Positions 2 through 8,148 of a stretch of 8,235 bases of DNA are shown one piece after another. The stretch comes from a virus. Its lineage: Duplodnaviria; Heunggongvirae; Uroviricota; Caudoviricetes. The notes under the pieces were generated by a model. The model was not told where the DNA came from, did no database searches, and was given only the letters and a program-made list of their open reading frames with translations. Both the position numbers and the translations under genes were made by a program. The stretch lies in the IMG/VR virus record IMGVR_UViG_2651869696_000011. The stretch is one strand, 5' to 3'. Numbering within the stretch: position 1 is the stretch's first letter; every line of letters begins with the position of its first letter.

Positions 2-478
2 AAGCAGAAAAAGCTTATTATGCTTCCATCGGAAACGATGATCTGGCAGCCTGAGTTCACAGATAAAACACTCTCCAGGAAACCCGGGGCGGTTCAGGCC
101 GCCGGTCGTTATATTCGTTCGCATGAAGCCGTTCAGCACATCAGCATCCGCGACCGGCTGAATGATTTTATGCAGCAGCACGGCACAGTACTGGCGGCCG
201 CACTGGCACCGGAGCTGATGGGCTACAGTGAGCTGACGGCCATTGCCCGAAACTGTGCCATACAGCGTGCCACAGATGCCCTGCGTGAAGCCCTCCTGTC
301 CTGGCTTGCGAAGGGTGAAAAAATTAATTATTCCGCACAGGATAGCGACATTTTAACGGCCATTGGATTCAGACCTGACGCGGCTTCGGTGGATGACAGC
401 CGTGAAAAATTCACCCCTGCGCAGAACATGATTTTTTCGCGTAAAAGTGCGCAACTGGCATCACGTCAGTCTGTGTAA
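2..478 (+). CDS. psu: Psu-like polarity-suppression / capsid-decoration protein, C-terminal ~158 aa; 5' end lies outside the window
   Basis: Reading frame is open from the window edge (no stop between position 2 and the first ATG at 20), stop at 476-478. It is immediately upstream of, and transcribed toward, the cos site, as psu is in P4. Identity is inferred from context and recalled similarity to P4 Psu, not from an alignment. Confidence 0.55.
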   Translation, partial: KQKKLIMLPSETMIWQPEFTDKTLSRKPGAVQAAGRYIRSHEAVQHISIRDRLNDFMQQHGTVLAAALAPELMGYSELTAIARNCAIQRATDALREALLSWLAKGEKINYSAQDSDILTAIGFRPDAASVDDSREKFTPAQNMIFSRKSAQLASRQSV

Positions 479-514
479 AATTCCCCGAAAATCCGCCCGT
501 TTTTACTGAAAAAA

Positions 515-543
515 GCCATGCATCGATAAGGTGCATGGCTTTG
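515..543 (+). terminator. Putative rho-independent terminator downstream of the psu-like gene
   Basis: Perfect 8-bp stem gccatgca (515-522) / tgcatggc (532-539) with a 9-nt loop, followed by tttg; lies 37 nt after the stop codon. Confidence 0.45.
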
Positions 544-569
544 CATGCGTTTCCCTGCCTCATTTTCTG

Positions 570-597
570 CAGACCGCGCCATTCCCGGCGCGGTCTG
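570..597. other. Perfect 11-bp stem-loop in the cos-proximal spacer
   Basis: cagaccgcgcc (570-580) / ggcgcggtctg (587-597) with the 6-nt loop attccc; no T-tract follows, so it is not a classical terminator. Possibly part of the terminase recognition region near cos. Confidence 0.4.
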
Positions 598-642
598 AGC
601 GTGTCAGTGCAACTGCATTAAAACCGCCCCGCAAAGCGGGCG

Positions 643-661
643 GGCGAGGCGGGGAAAGCAC
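643..661. other. P2/P4-type cos cohesive-end sequence (cosN)
   Basis: Exact 19-nt string ggcgaggcggggaaagcac, which I recall as the cohesive-end sequence shared by P2, 186 and P4. It lies between the psu-like gene and the integrase-proximal cargo, as in P4. Confidence 0.6.
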
Positions 662-724
662 TGCGCGCCCGGTTGGTGCTCGTTACTAATGTTTTTTGCG
701 CCCGAGCACCGTCGGGAAGGGGCT

Positions 725-733
725 GGGGGGGGG
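725..733. repeat. G9 homopolymer inside a G-rich run (711-750: ggg, gggg, ggggggggg, gggg)
   Basis: Read directly from the sequence; the tract spacing fits a canonical G-quadruplex motif. Intergenic. Confidence 0.5.
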
Positions 734-896
734 ATAGGGGAGGTGCCTGACGTCGCGCGGTAATGTTGGTAAGTGTGCCGCTGATGGCTTCTGAGGGGAG
801 TGGTAAATAGCCGCCTTTCGACGGTGTAGTGGGGAGAGTATTGCTTACAAACGTAATGAAATTGTTTGAGTAGCTAGGCTACTGCATAGGATTATT

Positions 897-925
897 TTGT
901 TCTGTTAATATATCCGTTAATATAG
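897..925 (+). promoter_or_regulatory. Putative promoter and tandem 9-bp direct repeat upstream of the cargo operon
   Basis: gttaatata repeated at 904-912 and 916-924 (12-bp register); ttgttc (897-902) and atatag (920-925) are a possible -35/-10 pair with a 17-nt spacer. Lies in the AT-rich leader about 35 nt before the start codon at 959. Weak, sequence-only call. Confidence 0.25.
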
Positions 926-958
926 ATAGATTGATCCAATTGAGTTTAAGGAATGAGT

Positions 959-1342
959 ATGTTTCAGATATCAGCTGGAGTGTTCTTTGATTTAGATAAA
1001 ATAGAAAAACACGATGGCACATTTGTTTTTTATTCAAATGTTGATGTGTCTTTCTCGGTGGAAAACACCTCCCCTCTTTTTAAAGCAAATAAAATAAGTC
1101 ATGATGGTATAAACTGTTATGTGGTAAACTATACTCTCCTGACCGAAAAACCAGAACGAATTGAAGCTGGAGTCGTAGTTAGGGCTGGTGATGAGGATTA
1201 TAGGCAACAATTTATTTTATTATGGGAATTCTATTTTGATTGTGTGGCTAGAGTAGAAAAAGAATCGGTTAAAAAATATGTGCATTATCAAATTTTAATA
1301 AACATCACTCAAAAATTGCGCTTGAAGTTGCCCCATATTTAG
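959..1342 (+). CDS. Hypothetical protein (127 aa), first gene of the AT-rich cargo operon
   Basis: ORF 953-1342; the second in-frame ATG at 959 has a good SD (aagga at 947-951, 7-nt spacer), whereas the ATG at 953 is too close to it. AT-rich codon usage. No family recognised. Confidence 0.6.
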   Translation: MFQISAGVFFDLDKIEKHDGTFVFYSNVDVSFSVENTSPLFKANKISHDGINCYVVNYTLLTEKPERIEAGVVVRAGDEDYRQQFILLWEFYFDCVARVEKESVKKYVHYQILINITQKLRLKLPHI

Positions 1343-2661
1343 TGGAGATTAACCGAAGAGTTTCATTTGATGATGTCTCTGGGTTTTCTGCTTTTATTAA
1401 AGATGTAGTGAATCTAAATAGATCTGCCTTTAAATCTTTAATGGCAGCGTTAAAAATAATTAGTGATTCAAAAGAATCATTGTCAACCAACTTTGACCTG
1501 ACTTATTCCATGTTAGTCTATGCCTTGGAGTCTTTGTCTCAAAGAAATGATAACTATAAGTCTGATTGGGATGACTACGATCAAAAAACCAGAGGTGAAT
1601 TAGAGTCTGTATTTGAGCATATGCCTGGTGAGGATGTTTGTAAAATTAAATCAATACTTATTGAAGGCAAACAATTCAGATTACAAAAAAGGTTCAAAGA
1701 TTTTATACTGAAAAATCTTGAAGAAAATTATTTCAATGAAACAGAGAGATATCCAATCCGCTATAGCTTCCTTAGTAGAGCTTTAGATAATTTATACAAA
1801 ATCAGGTCTTCTTTTGTCCATGAGCTTAAGCCACTTGATGCAATGATCTCGAAAGCCTACAATCCTGTTGGTGATTGTCTGGTTCTTTTTGGCGAACCTC
1901 ACTTCAGTTACTCTGGATTGCTTCGACTTCTTCGCCATGTGATAATAAATTTTTGCCGTAAAAACTACAGTCAAAAAAGAGAGTATGTTAATTGGGTGAT
2001 GGAAACATCGGGTGTAATGGTTGCAGAGATATCTGCACAATATTGGCTCTGGAATGCAGACGGATTTACAGCTAAAAGTATAGCGAAGTGGTTTAGTGAA
2101 TACCTAAATATGTTAAATTTAGGCGAAGTCACTGATTTGCAGTCTATCATGGACAAAATTGAGATAATCTATGACCAATCCAAAAAAGAATATAAAAATG
2201 GGTTGTTGTATTTTTATTTCTTATATAACTTAATGCATAATGGAAATAAGGGTGAATGGCTTGAGTTTGCGAACAAGCGAAGTTCTATACTTGTTTGTGA
2301 TATATATTGGTATTCATGCTCTCCATATTTATATAAATCATTTACTAATGTTTCAAATGGTATTGCTGATATAAAAACATTGAGAAACTTTTTGTCTTGT
2401 TTTAACGAATATGATAAAAATAAATTTAAGCCAAATCGTTTAAATCTCCCTGCAATGACCGAAGTAATTATGTTGGCTTGCGCAGCAAATTCATTCTTCA
2501 GAATTGGAATGTATCAAGACTATGTTTTAATGGGCAATAGAGCGATGAGAGAAATTGCTTCAGTAAAAGATGTATTTTATTATATAAAAGAACGATTAAG
2601 TAATTCACAACTTATTGAATTGGACGAGTGCTTGAGATTGTATAGAAAAAAGGGGGGCTAA
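1342..2661 (+). CDS. Hypothetical protein (439 aa), second gene of the cargo operon; contains an Rx4H (HEPN-like) motif
   Basis: Long uninterrupted ORF with AT-rich codon usage. The only possible start before the first internal ATG (1441) is GTG at 1342, which overlaps the upstream stop (TAGTG) and has no clear SD, so the start is uncertain. The motif R-SSFV-H is at codons 155-160 (nt 1804-1821). Confidence 0.8.
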   Translation: MEINRRVSFDDVSGFSAFIKDVVNLNRSAFKSLMAALKIISDSKESLSTNFDLTYSMLVYALESLSQRNDNYKSDWDDYDQKTRGELESVFEHMPGEDVCKIKSILIEGKQFRLQKRFKDFILKNLEENYFNETERYPIRYSFLSRALDNLYKIRSSFVHELKPLDAMISKAYNPVGDCLVLFGEPHFSYSGLLRLLRHVIINFCRKNYSQKREYVNWVMETSGVMVAEISAQYWLWNADGFTAKSIAKWFSEYLNMLNLGEVTDLQSIMDKIEIIYDQSKKEYKNGLLYFYFLYNLMHNGNKGEWLEFANKRSSILVCDIYWYSCSPYLYKSFTNVSNGIADIKTLRNFLSCFNEYDKNKFKPNRLNLPAMTEVIMLACAANSFFRIGMYQDYVLMGNRAMREIASVKDVFYYIKERLSNSQLIELDECLRLYRKKGG

Positions 2662-2669
2662 CCCCTTTT
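2648..2669. terminator. Putative bidirectional terminator at the convergent junction of the cargo gene and the integrase
   Basis: 8-bp stem aaaagggg (2648-2655) / cccctttt (2662-2669) with the 6-nt loop ggctaa, A-tract on one side and ttttatttttaa on the other. Both stop codons (2659-2661 plus strand, 2658-2660 minus strand) lie in or beside the loop. Confidence 0.4.
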
Positions 2670-3854
2670 ATTTTTAACGTATTCACCCCACCAATCCATC
2701 AATTCAATTCGCTGCACGAGATAAGTAGAACGATTGTATGCTTTTCTAACTTCATTTTTATCACTGTGGGCTAAGGCAGACTCGATAACATCAGGATTTA
2801 ATCCAGCTTCATTCATGGCTGTACTTGCTATTGAACGTAATCCATGGGCAACTAATTTTCCGCCAAAACCAATACGTTTTAAAGCTGCATTTGCAGTCTG
2901 ACTGTTCATTGGTTTCTTTGGGTCATTCCGACTCGGAAAAACATATTCACGATGAGCACTAATAGGCTTCATCACATTAAGAATCTCTAATGCCTGAGAT
3001 GATAGAGGAATTATGTGTTCCCGTTTAGCCTTCATCCGTTCGGCAGGAATCGTCCAGAGCTTTGCATGAAGATCGATTTCTTCCCACCGAGTACTGGAGG
3101 CTTCAGAAGGGCGCACAAGAGTCAGGAGTTGCCATTCAATTAGACAGCGAGTCGGGATAGACAGATTTGACATGACTAAAGAACGCATCAGCTTTGGTAA
3201 TTCTTCAGGTCGAAGCGTCGGCATGTTTTGTTTTTTTGGCTTTTCGAAGGCCATGCCAACACCTGATGCTGGGTTTGCATCAATCAAGCCAGTGTTAACC
3301 GCATAAATCATTATTTCGTTAATGCGTTGCACCAGACGACGTACAGTCTCTAATGCCCCACGAGCTTTGACTGGCTCAAGTGCTTCGACCAATGTTCTAG
3401 CTTTGATCTGCTGAACGGGCATCTCACCAACGGCGGGGAATACATCTTTTTCCAATGAGCGCCAAATATCTTTTGCATAATCAGGGGTAACACTTTTGCT
3501 TTTGAGCTGAAACCAATTAGCGGCGACCGTCGAGAAAATACTGTCCTGTGCGATTTGCTGCTGTTCCTCTGCAATTTCAGCTTGAATTTGCGGGTCAATT
3601 CCGTTGGCTAACAAGGAAAGGTAATCCGCTCTTAAGCGTCGGGCGTCAGCAAGTGAAAGGGCTGGGAAGGCTCCTAGCCCCATCATTGTCCGTTGCTTTG
3701 TTGCCGGACGTTGATAACGGAAACGCCATAACTTCTTACCGTTCGTTTTAACGAGTAGAAAAAGACCATCGCCATCATGCAACGTTAGATCCTTTTCTAA
3801 CGCTTTAGCGCGCAGTACTTCTGTGTTGGTCAGGGGGCGTGTCGTTCTTGCCAA
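2658..3854 (-). CDS. int: P4-family tyrosine integrase (CP4-57 IntA-like), 398 aa
   Basis: N-terminus MARTTRPLT...DGDGLFLLV...LWRFRYQRP and C-terminal HGLRSIAST...ALAH...VRKAYNRSTYLVQR are characteristic of P4-type integrases. Its 5' end faces the ssrA-derived att core, the usual tRNA/tmRNA-int arrangement. Confidence 0.9.
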   Translation of the reverse strand: MARTTRPLTNTEVLRAKALEKDLTLHDGDGLFLLVKTNGKKLWRFRYQRPATKQRTMMGLGAFPALSLADARRLRADYLSLLANGIDPQIQAEIAEEQQQIAQDSIFSTVAANWFQLKSKSVTPDYAKDIWRSLEKDVFPAVGEMPVQQIKARTLVEALEPVKARGALETVRRLVQRINEIMIYAVNTGLIDANPASGVGMAFEKPKKQNMPTLRPEELPKLMRSLVMSNLSIPTRCLIEWQLLTLVRPSEASSTRWEEIDLHAKLWTIPAERMKAKREHIIPLSSQALEILNVMKPISAHREYVFPSRNDPKKPMNSQTANAALKRIGFGGKLVAHGLRSIASTAMNEAGLNPDVIESALAHSDKNEVRKAYNRSTYLVQRIELMDWWGEYVKNKRG

Positions 3855-3884
3855 TTTGGCCGCTCCTTCATGAATTGGTATACG

Positions 3885-3935
3885 CGTTTAGGTATACATC
3901 CTACCGTATACCTAAACGTATACCAATAATCACTG
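3885..3935. promoter_or_regulatory. Imperfect inverted repeat in the integrase leader (candidate operator or integrase/IHF binding sites)
   Basis: Arms ttggtatacgcgtttaggtatac (3885-3907) and gtatacctaaacgtataccaa (3915-3935) are reverse complements apart from a 2-nt cg insertion; gtatac half-sites recur four times. Lies 30-80 nt upstream of the integrase start codon. Confidence 0.45.
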
Positions 3936-3973
3936 GATTTAGCTGGATATCCTCGGACAACGGTAGACACAAA

Positions 3974-4005
3974 AAAGCCCGCAGAGCTTGTGCTATGCGG
4001 GCTTT
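3974..4005 (-). terminator. Rho-independent terminator (minus-strand sense) downstream of the tmRNA 3'-end copy
   Basis: Stem agcccgca (3976-3983) / tgcgggct (3996-4003) with a 12-nt loop; on the minus strand it is followed by a run of six T (complement of aaaaaa at 3971-3976). Confidence 0.5.
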
Positions 4006-4038
4006 CAGGATTTCTCCGGACGTATCCGGAAGAGCAAG

Positions 4039-4065
4039 TGGTGGAGCTGGCGGGAGTTGAACCCG
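4039..4065 (-). other. Attachment-site core: 27-nt copy of the ssrA (tmRNA) 3' end without the rest of the gene
   Basis: tggtggagctggcgggagttgaacccg is the reverse complement of the tmRNA 3' terminus (...CGGGUUCAACUCCCGCCAGCUCCACCA). The match breaks off at 4066 and the sequence to the right is an AT-rich protein-coding gene, so this is a partial att repeat, not a functional ssrA. Confidence 0.7.
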
Positions 4066-4103
4066 TGTCTGAAAAATATTAACCTGTTGTTTTAATTATA
4101 TAT

Positions 4104-4883
4104 TTATCTGAACATGGCGTTTGCGGCGCTTTTGCGTATCTTCTCTAGACCTTTTGTAGTCCATTTCTCTGGTACAGGTGTAAACCGTAGTGCAAAATCT
4201 GCCTCCATATTATCACCACTGAAACGTGCCACTCCACGTTCCAATTTTGTTTGCCAAGTGACTTTTTTAGTTTTACCCTCTATATCTTGATATTCAATAA
4301 TTAATTTTGGACCAGTGAATGATGAAGAACCGACTAATTTAAGTCTATGTGAAAGATATGCTATATTCAATAGAATATCAATTGCCGCGGTTGGTACAAA
4401 AATGTTTTTTGACTTCTTATCTATACTATATGGTAACGAAAAATCAATATCGTAAGGTGTCGATAAAGTATTGTACATATATACTTTTCTTTCTTTTATT
4501 ATTTTGAATATTCCATACTGGGAGTCGGTTGTAAAAGATTTATCTTCTTTTTTGAATTTTTTCGAAAACAACTCTAAATATAGATTTATGTTTTTTTTAT
4601 AATTAAAATCCCAATGATATCTAAGTGAAATTGCCGCCCCCAATCCTATGTTTGAAAATTTTGTTTGTGGAAGCGTAGGGGCTTGTAAGATATCAACATG
4701 AAAACCGTTGAAATCGTTAACATTCATCTTGATATTTAAAGTGTCTATCACTAAATTGGGTTTATAAGAGAGCCTTCTTTGAAATATCGTTAACCATATT
4801 GCATATAATGCAGCAATTGCTGAAATGAAAGTACCAACTGAAGATATGTAGGTGATTAGTTTGTCGAATGTAATTGTAATCAA
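4104..4883 (-). CDS. Hypothetical membrane-anchored protein (259 aa), a moron between integrase and att
   Basis: Strongly AT-rich ORF with a predicted N-terminal transmembrane helix (ITYISSVGTFISAIAALYAIWLTIF). The only start upstream of the first internal Met (codon 53) is TTG at 4881-4883, preceded by GGGGA at a 7-nt spacing. No family recognised. Confidence 0.65.
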   Translation of the reverse strand: MITITFDKLITYISSVGTFISAIAALYAIWLTIFQRRLSYKPNLVIDTLNIKMNVNDFNGFHVDILQAPTLPQTKFSNIGLGAAISLRYHWDFNYKKNINLYLELFSKKFKKEDKSFTTDSQYGIFKIIKERKVYMYNTLSTPYDIDFSLPYSIDKKSKNIFVPTAAIDILLNIAYLSHRLKLVGSSSFTGPKLIIEYQDIEGKTKKVTWQTKLERGVARFSGDNMEADFALRFTPVPEKWTTKGLEKIRKSAANAMFR

Positions 4884-4924: not shown

Positions 4925-6097
4925 TTAATTATGATTATGCAAATGATTTATCGATGTAAAGTTATCATACTCTTTAAGATACGAACCATAGTGCCTGAAA
5001 AGCATCTCCGGCCCTTTATGCCCCATTTGAGCTGCAAGCCAAAACAGGTTTGCTCCTCGGCTGATATGGCTGGTGGCGAATGTATGCCTGGTTTGATATG
5101 GGTTTCTGTAACGAATACCTGCTTTTCGCAATGTTGGCACCCATGCTTTTTTCCTAATTGCATCAGCACTTGCCCAAGGCTTATTGGTCTTTGGATCTTC
5201 AAAGACAGTAGCATCCTTCATGAATGTAAATGGCTTCTGATTTATCAGCGCCAACATTGCCTCTTCTGTCAGTTCAACTTTCCGAGTACCTGCTTTTGTC
5301 TTTGTCCCTTTGATAACACCGACAACACTTGCGCTCTGGACATGGGCAGTTTTTCCAACAAAGTCGATATCACGCCATCGAAGGGCACATAATTCAGAAC
5401 TACGCAGGCCTGTATGTATAGCGAACCGGAACAGATTTTCCCATTGTTTGTTTCCGGCTGCTGCTAGTAATGCATCAACTTCTGCTGGTGATAGCGGATC
5501 AACTACGTAGCTGCTTTCTGCTTCTGACTTATCACTTTGGTAGCGCGAAGCTGTTACTAACGATACGGGGTTAATTTGAAGTACCCCATCGGTCACGGCT
5601 TCATCAAGTGCTGACCGCAGGAAAGATAACTGGTTGCGAATGGTTTTTAAGGTCGTTTTCTGGCTTTGAATCCACGCTTTCAGGGTTGCTGGTGTTAATT
5701 CACTTGCAGGGCAAATGTGAAGTGAGGCTAACGCACTACGGCATTTTTTATAACCACCGATCGTGGATGGTGAAAGTTTCCTCGTTTCGCAGATTTCAAG
5801 GTATTCGTCCAGGTACATTTTTACCGTTTTGCCTGCAGCAGCATTACCAAAAATTTTCAAACGAGCAGAACGGGGAAAATATTCCGCATAAATGAATGTT
5901 CCCCTTTCGATCTTATTATGAATTTCGCCGAGTGTGCGCTCAGCGTATTTAATGTTCTTTGGTGTTACTTCCAGATTGGAAAGAGGCTCACGACATTTAA
6001 CTCCTTTGTAGGTGAAAGTTATATTGATCGTTTCGCCCTGGCGGTGTTTCCTGATTGTTACGCCGCGCGGTAGTTTGAGCAGTTTTGTCTGGCCCAT
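4925..6097 (-). CDS. int: Tyrosine integrase (390 aa)
   Basis: C-terminal catalytic region carries the recombinase residues (TGLRSSE; RHTFATSH; MGHKGPEMLFRHYGSY). ATG at 6095-6097 is preceded by gtgagg. Its 5' end overlaps the 3' end of the excisionase gene by 40 nt. Confidence 0.9.
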   Translation of the reverse strand: MGQTKLLKLPRGVTIRKHRQGETINITFTYKGVKCREPLSNLEVTPKNIKYAERTLGEIHNKIERGTFIYAEYFPRSARLKIFGNAAAGKTVKMYLDEYLEICETRKLSPSTIGGYKKCRSALASLHICPASELTPATLKAWIQSQKTTLKTIRNQLSFLRSALDEAVTDGVLQINPVSLVTASRYQSDKSEAESSYVVDPLSPAEVDALLAAAGNKQWENLFRFAIHTGLRSSELCALRWRDIDFVGKTAHVQSASVVGVIKGTKTKAGTRKVELTEEAMLALINQKPFTFMKDATVFEDPKTNKPWASADAIRKKAWVPTLRKAGIRYRNPYQTRHTFATSHISRGANLFWLAAQMGHKGPEMLFRHYGSYLKEYDNFTSINHLHNHN

Positions 6098-6264
6098 TTT
6101 GCAACCTCACTAAGATCAATCCACCTCTCCTTAACGCCTTCAACCTTTAAAACCTGAACACCTTCACGCCAAACACCGCGCTGTACACGTTTGTTTATTG
6201 CTTCAGGAGTTTCGCCAGTTTCTTTGCAATAAGTTGAGATTGGAACACAATCGAGGTTCAGCAT
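6058..6264 (-). CDS. xis: Excisionase (Xis-like, 68 aa)
   Basis: Small basic protein immediately upstream of and overlapping the integrase, the lambda-like int/xis arrangement. The ORF track starts at GTG 6276, but the ATG at 6262-6264 has a better SD (ggaga, 5-nt spacer). Confidence 0.65.
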   Translation of the reverse strand: MLNLDCVPISTYCKETGETPEAINKRVQRGVWREGVQVLKVEGVKERWIDLSEVAKWARQNCSNYRAA

Positions 6265-6323
6265 ATGTTTCTCCACTTAGCCCGCTGCACACGGGCAGTA
6301 ATATCAAATTCCAGTCCTGATAA

Positions 6324-6539
6324 TTAATTTTGTTCCCTGGTTGCTACCTGTTTTATTGGCCTGATGCTGTCCAGTAGCAGACGGCGACGCATGTTAGGTG
6401 CACCCCAACGGTAACCAGTCTTTTTGTCGTAGGATTCACAACGTCCGGCAACCCAGGACGTTTCAGTGGAATGTAATTTCATCCGCTTTTCACCGTCTCG
6501 GGTGATAACAATTCCTGTATGAGTTTTTATCACGCTCAT
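6324..6539 (-). CDS. Hypothetical prophage protein (71 aa)
   Basis: Its ATG overlaps the upstream gene's stop (ATGA at 6536-6539), indicating translational coupling. No family recognised. Confidence 0.5.
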   Translation of the reverse strand: MSVIKTHTGIVITRDGEKRMKLHSTETSWVAGRCESYDKKTGYRWGAPNMRRRLLLDSIRPIKQVATREQN

Positions 6540-6898
6540 TTCTTAGTCTCCGGTGCTTTCGGTATTACTGCCCAGTGAGTAATATTGACGTTTTCAAGGT
6601 CCCCGACTTGAAATGTCCACTGCCATTCTCCGGTTTCTTTTTGCCCCCATGTGTACCAGAGAGAACGCCAGCCAATCAGCCAGCCTTCTCCGTTAGCATC
6701 AAATAACAGAACACTTTCATTTGCTGGCGGCAGTTCAGCTGACACTGGTATTACTTTGTTTTCCAGTGCTGCACATTTAGCTTCAAGCGCATCAAATTTA
6801 CGCACCAGGTATTCAGCATCCGTTTCATTCACTTTCAGATCTCGCGGTACACATTTCCCGCGCAGAAACCCTTCCATTTCGAAAACATTCATGCGCAT
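6536..6898 (-). CDS. DUF551-like phage protein (120 aa; YfdS-like)
   Basis: Trp-rich C-terminal segment (GWLIGWRSLWYTWGQ...ITHWAVIPKAPE) resembles the DUF551 signature found in lambdoid prophage early regions. Its start ATG (6896-6898) lies 7 nt inside the upstream HD gene (ATGCGCATGA). Confidence 0.55.
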   Translation of the reverse strand: MRMNVFEMEGFLRGKCVPRDLKVNETDAEYLVRKFDALEAKCAALENKVIPVSAELPPANESVLLFDANGEGWLIGWRSLWYTWGQKETGEWQWTFQVGDLENVNITHWAVIPKAPETKK

Positions 6899-7425
6899 TT
6901 GTGTAACTCCGATAATTCGTTAAAGCGTTCCATAAACATCCCGTAGGCATGGCCTGGAGCCAGTGGAATCACGTTGAATATCTCTGTTGCCGGGATACCT
7001 TCCAGCACAGGCCAGAAAGAGCCATCATCAAGCCCGAGATCGCGGCGTTCGGTTGCCAGCATGATGAGATCGGCATATTTCACGGGTGTACTCATAACCG
7101 GGGGTAACCCGTATTTCTCACGGATTACGGCGTCTATTTTTTCTTCCATCCGTTTATAGTCAGGAAGAAGGCGTTTCAGTGGTGCGGGGATGTCCTGGCA
7201 ATACGCTTCTGTTGCATCATGCATTAACGCTTCAAAAGCAAACTCCTGCGGTACCAGCTGGCTGCAAAGCACCGCATGTTGGGCGACGCTGTAGAAGTGT
7301 GAAAGATGACCAGCAAAGCGACAGATATTTGAAAGGGAAACCGCGATATCGTTAATAACGATGTCGTCTTTATTTATCTTGTCATAATAAAAATGCTTCC
7401 CGGAAAAAGTTTTAATAAATGACAT
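6889..7425 (-). CDS. yfdR: HD-domain phosphohydrolase, YfdR-like (178 aa)
   Basis: H...HD motif (RFAGH, SVAQH, MHDATEAY) typical of HD-superfamily enzymes. The ORF track begins at TTG 7506, but the ATG at 7423-7425 (MSFIKTF...) has a strong SD (gtggaga, 5-nt spacer) and gives the recalled 178-aa length of E. coli CPS-53 YfdR. Symbol is from memory, not a search. Confidence 0.7.
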   Translation of the reverse strand: MSFIKTFSGKHFYYDKINKDDIVINDIAVSLSNICRFAGHLSHFYSVAQHAVLCSQLVPQEFAFEALMHDATEAYCQDIPAPLKRLLPDYKRMEEKIDAVIREKYGLPPVMSTPVKYADLIMLATERRDLGLDDGSFWPVLEGIPATEIFNVIPLAPGHAYGMFMERFNELSELHKCA

Positions 7426-7545
7426 TTCGTTCTCCACTTTATATGCGCTGCACTGCGCTGAATTTTGGGAAAAGGAAGCCCTCGCCATCCGGCGATTATT
7501 AAGCAATTACGTTTCAATAGATGCCCCCGCAGGGGCGGTTAGTTT

Positions 7546-7740
7546 CTCCACAAAACAGAGAAGAACACCTGCGGTGACCGCCGCCCGGATGGATTGGGTT
7601 ATGAGCCCGTCGTCCGGTGATGCTCTTCTCTGTTTTGTAAAAAGAGCGGTACCAGCCGGAAGCAAGGGTACAAACTGGTACCGCCAGGACTACACACAGC
7701 ATAAAGTTGTGGTGCCGGGTGCCTCCCGGTGCCTGGCGAA
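7546..7740. other. GC-rich structured non-coding region (candidate ncRNA or cis-regulatory element)
   Basis: 15-bp inverted repeat acaaaacagagaaga (7550-7564) / tcttctctgttttgt (7624-7638) enclosing 59 nt. Perfect 10-bp hairpin gcggtaccag (7646-7655) / ctggtaccgc (7675-7684) with a 19-nt loop. Three ggtgcc direct repeats (7711-7733). The region is open in several frames on both strands with no RBS-supported ORF, which is typical of GC-rich non-coding DNA. Confidence 0.4.
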
Positions 7741-7938
7741 GGTTGCACACCAGACGGGTGGGTATCCACAGAAGGTCGACTGTCAGCCTCAACCTTAACC
7801 CGCGTGCGCTGAGCCGCATTCACCACAACGCTAAGGATTCTCTTTGGTTGAAAATACTTAGCTGTTATGTGCCTGTCTTTTCACCACTTCAGGCTCGGTG
7901 GTATCCTTTTAAGCCCGTATACATAAAAGGAAAATCAA

Positions 7939-8148
7939 ATGACTTTTGATGAAAAAGAACTTGATAATGCAATTAATAAAATCATCGTAACGTCGCTCTT
8001 TTCCTGTCTCAGCGACACTCAGCAGAAACAGTTCTACGAATCGGCTTTCAACATGATCGAGCGTTGTTGTTTCTGCGATGCCGACGAGTTACCTGAAAAA
8101 ATCAGGAAACAGTTGGCTGATGCTCTTCGAGTGCGACTTTCTGGGTGA
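7939..8148 (+). CDS. Hypothetical protein (69 aa), divergent from the int-xis operon
   Basis: ATG at 7939 preceded by aagga (7927-7931) with a 7-nt spacer. No family recognised. Confidence 0.5.
   Translation: MTFDEKELDNAINKIIVTSLFSCLSDTQQKQFYESAFNMIERCCFCDADELPEKIRKQLADALRVRLSG

Follow-up and report, generated by a model that had tools for sequence, protein, structure and literature searches.

A HEPN-TPR gene in the psu-int hotspot of a P4-like satellite, split by a one-base deletion and predicted to encode a stand-alone ribonuclease

HEPN RNases recur as effectors in prokaryotic immunity, as in Cas13, Csm6, PrrC, ApeA, and DARNA. In ApeA, the HEPN domain (R502/R521) is C-terminal, after an N-terminal domain and a Mid domain; ApeA, which assembles into decamers or dodecamers, cuts either the anticodon loops of tRNAs or the genomes of RNA phages. 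DARNA (PD-T7-3) is a HEPN tRNase that is switched on by single-stranded DNA displayed by the phage SSB. The HepT/MNT toxins and AbiV are minimal HEPN proteins of ~130-150 amino acids: HepT has a cognate MNT antitoxin, while AbiV is a stand-alone Abi protein. The nearest entry in the literature is from Rousset et al. 2022, who listed NC_010468 / WP_000486482 among P4 loci (Table S1A) as "hypothetical" and cloned the gene as pFR83 "HEPN-TPR"; it appears in Table S2B under "additional tested systems," outside the validated systems (PMC9122126). "HEPN-TPR" is a supplementary-table label only, given without motif or fold analysis (PMC9122126).

We analyzed 8,235 nucleotides from a virus (IMG/VR record IMGVR_UViG_2651869696_000011), hereafter the window. 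It contains the same gene as the Rousset entry (ATCC 8739, WP_000486482) in the same P4 psu-int locus, and the DNA is 99.7% identical, but the window allele has a frameshift from A7 to A6. We consider it quite likely that positions 959-2661 hold one three-domain gene (beta-rich, HEPN RNase, and TPR-like), the sole hotspot cargo of a P4-like satellite, which would encode a stand-alone, phage-triggered RNase and which is inactivated here.

Like the HEPN-TPR protein, ApeA (Gao_Ape) is a stand-alone HEPN protein on mobile elements (about 570-580 amino acids), and it has both R-x4-H (RNLIVH) and an "ALESL"-type motif in helix 2. By analogy, we propose that the two may also share the logic of a trigger-activated RNase. 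There are weak HMM cross-matches as well: 7 of 34 homologues match HEPN_Apea from Pfam weakly (best E value, 0.0032), and in one of these, P0050, the match covers profile positions 4-74 and scores 14.1 bits, versus a gathering cutoff of 24.4. The domain order differs, however: instead of being C-terminal, the HEPN domain is central in the HEPN-TPR protein (residues 129-340, with R283), with 110 beta-rich amino acids before it and a TPR-like region after it. For a direct comparison, we recovered the sequence of Ec2ApeA from a complete genome and collected 9 ApeA HEPN homologues. Aligning our family to these with hhalign gave a probability of at most 0.3%, which is only weakly negative because the 9-sequence alignment is shallow; a single-sequence run paired RSSFVH with RNLIVH, and the similarity was not significant. 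Because the HEPN_Apea score is below the gathering cutoff, the domain order differs, and the profile-profile similarity is not significant, we rejected membership in ApeA. Ec2ApeA, an experimentally studied ApeA homologue, is labeled "hypothetical protein" in RefSeq; its gene (L005 3105-4856) lies in a P2-like prophage, between the genes for baseplate protein V and virion morphogenesis.

DARNA is similar in that it is a HEPN effector made of one protein, follows an abortive-infection logic, and has its sensor, an ssDNA-binding domain, at the C terminus. In DARNA, however, the HEPN domain (R117-x4-H122) is N-terminal, without an additional N-terminal domain, and given this other domain order and the lack of a match to PD-T7-3 from PADLOC, we rejected membership in DARNA as well. 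The HEPN-TPR protein thus differs from both ApeA and DARNA in domain order, and we infer a like action by analogy. HepT/MNT toxins and AbiV are just 4-13% identical to the window protein, and no MNT gene was found in the window or in the homologues' loci, which argues against a HepT-MNT system.

The hotspot, the family, and a candidate role in defense

The locus is the psu-int (psu-cos-int) defense hotspot of a P4-like satellite. Its left border is the 3' part of psu (20..478, plus strand), which matches Psu from Pfam over profile positions 59-181 of 182 (E = 3.9e-62); the window's contig begins inside psu. The 19-mer GGCGAGGCGGGGAAAGCAC at 643..661 (plus strand), which we take to be the core of the P2/P4-type cohesive end (cos), is an exact and single match, with 0 expected by chance. 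The right border is a tyrosine integrase of the P4 type (2658..3854, minus strand), with Arm-DNA-bind_3, Phage_int_M, and Phage_integrase domains from Pfam; the identical protein, WP_000124719, is found in complete genomes. Between psu/cos and int lies the HEPN-TPR gene (959-2661, plus strand), with 32-36% GC versus 44-57% in the flanks. This arrangement, a variable gene between psu and int and beside cos, is that of P4 hotspot cargo, and the psu-int hotspot of P4 is known to adjoin cos (Rousset 2022, PMC9122126). By a consensus scan, the cargo's stop codon also lies within a terminator-like hairpin (2648..2669, plus strand; AAAAGGGGGGCTAACCCCTTTT, with a run of Ts), and this hairpin extends into the 3' end of the integrase gene that converges on the cargo.

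Beyond the integrase, positions 4039..4074 (minus strand) are a copy of the ~36 3'-terminal nucleotides of ssrA, with two mismatches, and are the remnant of the satellite's attachment site. This copy was identified by alignment to a complete genome (L002): window positions 94-4074 align to 6216-10196, and the tmRNA gene is annotated at 10161-10523. The satellite adjoins ssrA in complete genomes, and scans of the window for tRNA, tmRNA, and Rfam families had no matches; neither a tmRNA nor a tRNA gene is complete there. Sibling assemblies have an IS3-family transposase gene (HTH_Tnp_1 and rve) next to, or in place of, the 5' part of psu (L012 3501-4714; L013 1-888), so the P4-like satellite appears to be degraded or decaying in this lineage.

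The remainder of the window includes a 259-amino-acid ORF (4104-4883, minus strand; about 28% GC) between two integrases. It matches phrog_7259, of unknown function (E = 2e-85), has a hydrophobic N terminus that resembles a transmembrane segment, and is called as just 124 amino acids in siblings L012, L013, and L015. This ORF may be another cargo or defense candidate. After the copy of ssrA, there is a second integrative element in tandem (4925-8148), which encodes an integrase with Arm-DNA-bind_2 (4925-6097), a DUF551 protein (6536-6898), a YfdR-like HD-domain 5'-deoxynucleotidase (6889-7506), and small ORFs. A region of E. coli strain C1 is 99.4% identical to the second element and has a different P4-type integrase upstream of it.

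Clustered at 50% identity, homologues of the HEPN-TPR protein fall into more than 1,000 groups, and those that are named come from Gammaproteobacteria, Lacrimispora (Bacillota), and Cellulomonas (Actinomycetota). The Aeromonas homologue is in an integrase island beside SIR2 and HerA; the Ferrimonas homologue is near DUF4145 and a kinase/PP2C pair; the Lacrimispora homologue is in a prophage, between the terminase and portal genes; the Cellulomonas homologue is near HEPN_AbiV and a DEAD/ResIII helicase; and the Klebsiella homologue is in a variable region near a resolvase. No neighbor is common to these five loci. In looking for a conserved neighbor, we also compared the window's 259-amino-acid ORF with the ORFs downstream of the homologues in Aeromonas and Lacrimispora, but these are unrelated to each other.

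The HEPN-TPR protein is an uncharacterized member of the HEPN effector class and a candidate anti-phage protein, which the literature has flagged so far without validation. The supplement of DefensePredictor gives WP_000486482.1 a score of 7.09 and describes it as a "Predicted novel defense gene"; its file of tested systems does not include this accession. Searching the literature for "HEPN-TPR" or the WP accession yielded no main-text match and no characterizing paper, and the P4 systems that were newly named in PMC13586616 do not have this architecture.

Alternatively, this could be a genuine HEPN protein with a role outside of defense, such as satellite-helper interference, element addiction, or RNA processing, or a noncatalytic, ligand-binding HEPN. 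HEPN domains do occur in toxin-antitoxin modules and in noncatalytic forms (PMC3710099), and the published test of the intact gene, against eight phages, left it off the list of validated systems (PMC9122126). Negative results on small panels of phages are common (PMC13586616). However, the predicted catalytic residues are intact and invariant, and HEPN domains with the motif have been argued to be RNases (PMC3710099). The family's siting in defense hotspots, islands, and moron positions of prophages favors defense, as does the machine-learning prediction. We therefore think that a non-defense role is unlikely, though it is the strongest of the alternatives, and we favor a stand-alone antiviral RNase.

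One 567-amino-acid gene split by a deletion in an A-tract

The window was originally described as encoding a 439-amino-acid protein, with a 127-amino-acid protein upstream as a potential partner or regulator. These are the two halves of a single gene for 567 amino acids, which is broken by a one-base deletion. When we compared the 439-amino-acid ORF (1342..2661) to 5.8 billion proteins, nearly all of the homologues had about 567 amino acids. The best match, P0001 from E. coli, has 567 amino acids and is 99% identical to the ORF. P0001 begins with MFQISAG, its residues 1-106 are identical to those of the upstream ORF (959..1342), and it runs on via KESVKKICALSNF and then LVEINRR into the 439-amino-acid ORF. 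More broadly, the family includes about 1,170 clusters, nearly all of ~565 amino acids.

Translation in three frames placed the switch between frames at GTT AAAAAA TATGTGC. The 5' part of the gene (959..1276, plus strand) encodes residues 1-106 of 567, which form the beta-rich N-terminal domain; the 3' part (1277..2661, plus strand) is in another frame and encodes residues 107-567, with 99% identity to P0001. Residues 107-127 of the 127-amino-acid ORF are out of frame relative to the intact protein, and the start codon called for the 439-amino-acid ORF is an internal GTG, for V129 of the intact protein. AAGGA lies 6 nucleotides 5' of the ATG at 959; the bases before the GTG at 1342 contain no Shine-Dalgarno sequence. 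We found the gene in 20 of 5,426 complete E. coli genomes, and all 19 of the full-length matches are one base longer than the window. Alignment with two of these, ATCC 8739 and NS-NP030, showed A7 where the window has A6 (1271..1276, plus strand), and at this locus RefSeq has a single 1704-nucleotide CDS in both (WP_000486482 and WP_088551761, respectively). The putative partner is thus the protein's own N-terminal domain, severed by the loss of one nucleotide from the A7 tract, and at other loci no conserved neighboring gene goes with the family. Since the deletion parts this domain from the HEPN and TPR-like domains, the gene is probably inactive, or a pseudogene, in this strain lineage.

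Could the frameshift instead be an error in sequencing or assembly, with the gene intact in the organism? The A6/A7 difference does sit in a homopolymer, and another homopolymer in the window differs between sibling assemblies. This second run, at 717-725 in the noncoding stretch from cos to the cargo gene, has nine Gs (G9) in the window and L015 but eight (G8) in the complete genomes and in the siblings L012, L013, L016, and L017; it could be hypervariable, or its variation could be a sequencing artifact. However, while the G-run varies, A6 is constant in all six of the assemblies of this lineage that we checked (GCA_001266155.1, whose contig JHSV01000108.1 is the window, and five others), among which are one 5.3-Mb contig and one read assembly from Logan. 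The exact 439-amino-acid product is also on record for several contigs (6 in one listing and 10 in another). Because A6 recurs across the six assemblies, we conclude from the sequences that the deletion is inherited and is not a read error; an error at this site is improbable.

As for a genuine two-gene system, with a 127-amino-acid regulator (or antitoxin) 5' of a 439-amino-acid HEPN toxin, the one-base overlap of the window's ORFs (TAGTG) does resemble translational coupling, and both gene callers and RefSeq annotate the 439-amino-acid ORF as a protein in this lineage (WP_249399475.1 in RefSeq), but we give this reading almost no weight: the junction was created by the deletion, RefSeq has one CDS for 567 amino acids wherever we checked, nearly all of the family representatives listed are full length, the internal GTG lacks a ribosome-binding site of the Shine-Dalgarno type, and there is no MNT-type antitoxin. 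We also examined two short homologues as potential natural examples of a split: P0057 has a mis-called start (the same frame continues upstream), and P0056 is a copy that was disrupted by an IS. The apparent module of a toxin plus a partner is a frameshift annotation artifact, which has been carried on in RefSeq as a 439-amino-acid protein.

Two other alleles are also disrupted. The allele in L003, which is 91% identical, has an independent A6 at the same place (about L003 347-358), while the allele in L004, which is 86% identical, retains A7 and is missing one base about 45 nucleotides downstream (about L004 3970). With the window's lineage, this makes three independent one-nucleotide deletions in the linker between domains. 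A slip of -1 on A6 (from GTT AAA AAA to ATA TGT GCA) would restore VKKICA. Judging from the sequences, the recurrent frameshifts in the linker could reflect an on/off switch that is prone to slippage, or a site of low-level -1 frameshifting, either of which could limit autoimmunity.

The HEPN domain and its predicted active site

The original prediction was that an R-x4-H motif indicates a HEPN-like RNase domain. Translation confirms the motif: AGGTCTTCTTTTGTCCAT at 1804-1821 encodes RSSFVH in the reading frame of ORF 1342..2661, within YKIRSSFVHELK (codons 152-163 of the ORF, nucleotides 1795-1830). We number its residues by the intact protein, as R283 and H288; these are R155 and H160 of the 439-amino-acid ORF, which is a product of the frameshift. 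The motif is the only R-x4-H, and also the only R-x4-6-H, in the ORF. By itself, it carries no significance: 0.27 occurrences are expected in an ORF with 439 amino acids, 24 arginines, and 5 histidines, and at least one is present in 24% of shuffles of the protein, so the caution that such a short motif could arise by chance was justified. The region was also expected to be helical, and it is in both of our AlphaFold2 models: the motif lies in a helix at 141-160 of the 439-amino-acid ORF, or 269-289 of the 567-amino-acid protein.

In an alignment of 34 homologues with 17-88% identity, Y280, R283, S284, and H288 are invariant. We then aligned 181 full-length members of the family (the best 150 matches from a profile search of 1.84 billion proteins, together with the first search), whose median identity to P0001 is 26%. 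Among these 181 proteins, S284, Y280, and W204 are conserved in all, E191 in 180, and R283 and H288 in 179 each. Just 13 of the 567 positions are at least 95% conserved, and 5 of the 13 are within Y-x2-R-S-x3-H-x-L. The two blocks with the lowest entropy in the whole protein are residues 181-195 (LTYSMLVYALESLSQ; window 1498..1542, plus strand), which include E191, the predicted catalytic acidic residue, and residues 276-290 (LDNLYKIRSSFVHEL).

The full-length AlphaFold2 model (pLDDT of 86) has a beta-rich N-terminal domain (residues 1-110, with strands across 15-76 and a helix at 78-92) and two helical domains, one at 130-335 and one at the C terminus (345-567). The first of the two helical domains corresponds to the HEPN domain (residues about 129-340; 1342..1977, plus strand). 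HEPN domains are defined by R-x4-6-H at the end of helix 3, an acidic residue that is conserved within helix 2, and an insert between helices 2 and 3 (Anantharaman et al. 2013, PMC3710099). In our model, the domain is a four-helix up-down bundle. R283-x4-H288 (1804..1821, plus strand) is at the end of the third helix (269-289), and a low-confidence loop leads from there to the fourth helix (318-335). E191 is in helix 2 (179-197), and the insert (198-268) comprises three short helices. Two details are less typical: E191 and the next basic residue form E-x4-[KR], not E-x3-[KR], and the residue after R283 is serine in 181 of 181 members, which is polar, but HEPN proteins usually have N, D, or H (PMC3710099). 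When we searched with the model of this domain, the best structural matches were HEPN proteins, such as HepT, AbiV, Csm6, and sacsin.

Whole-protein fold searches were uninformative or were dominated by TPR-like matches, and a full-length search with Foldseek had no match. Sequence models weakly favor the HEPN assignment: the first half of the domain matches "Cas13-ApeA" from PADLOC (3.6e-6), which is the sole ApeA-type match from PADLOC. There was no Pfam match above threshold for the window protein, no match for the family's profile among the sequences in PDB, and no match to NCBIfam or PHROGs for either the 127- or the 439-amino-acid ORF.

A chance R-x4-H in some non-nuclease helical protein, which the shuffles and the empty Pfam and full-length Foldseek results might seem to allow, is hardly credible given that R, S, and H are each retained in at least 179 of 181 divergent homologues, that 5 of the 13 most conserved positions fall within their motif, and that the domain's model retrieves HEPN folds. 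Conservation and the structural models instead support a genuine HEPN ribonuclease domain whose conserved catalytic signature is R-x4-H, with a predicted role as a nuclease. Overall, conservation, fold, and topology bear out the HEPN part of the original prediction; its other part, a partner or regulator, fell away with the finding of a single gene.

The C-terminal domain (residues 341-567; 1978..2658, plus strand) is all-helical and TPR-like and is the most variable, with an entropy of 2.84 bits versus 2.32 for the HEPN domain. The N terminus is nearly invariant in the family (MLQIxxGKFF). For the N-terminal domain, a weak match to "CSD_V" from PADLOC and five predicted strands led us to consider a cold-shock or OB fold, but hhalign comparisons to CspA and CspB were empty.

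Proposed mechanism and significance

We propose that E191 in helix 2 and RSSFVH (R283-x4-H288) would form the active site of a metal-independent HEPN RNase, which, by analogy with other HEPN enzymes, would be completed across the interface of a dimer. This stand-alone RNase would be switched on by a phage-derived trigger, and it would then either stop translation or destroy viral RNA. The variable TPR-like domain at the C terminus may be the sensor, and the N-terminal domain may regulate the enzyme or contribute to oligomerization. More tentatively, the family of ~567-amino-acid proteins might be an uncharacterized kind of stand-alone antiviral RNase with an activation logic of its own, in which the TPR-like sensor and the N-terminal domain together gate the central HEPN site, and frameshifts in the linker might be more than decay.

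Pinpointing E191, R283, and H288 provides ready-made catalytic-dead controls. The family is widespread, its arrangement of domains is outside of PADLOC 2.0 (2023) and Pfam, and it is predicted by machine learning to function in defense. Each HEPN family that has been characterized revealed a different mode of sensing infection.
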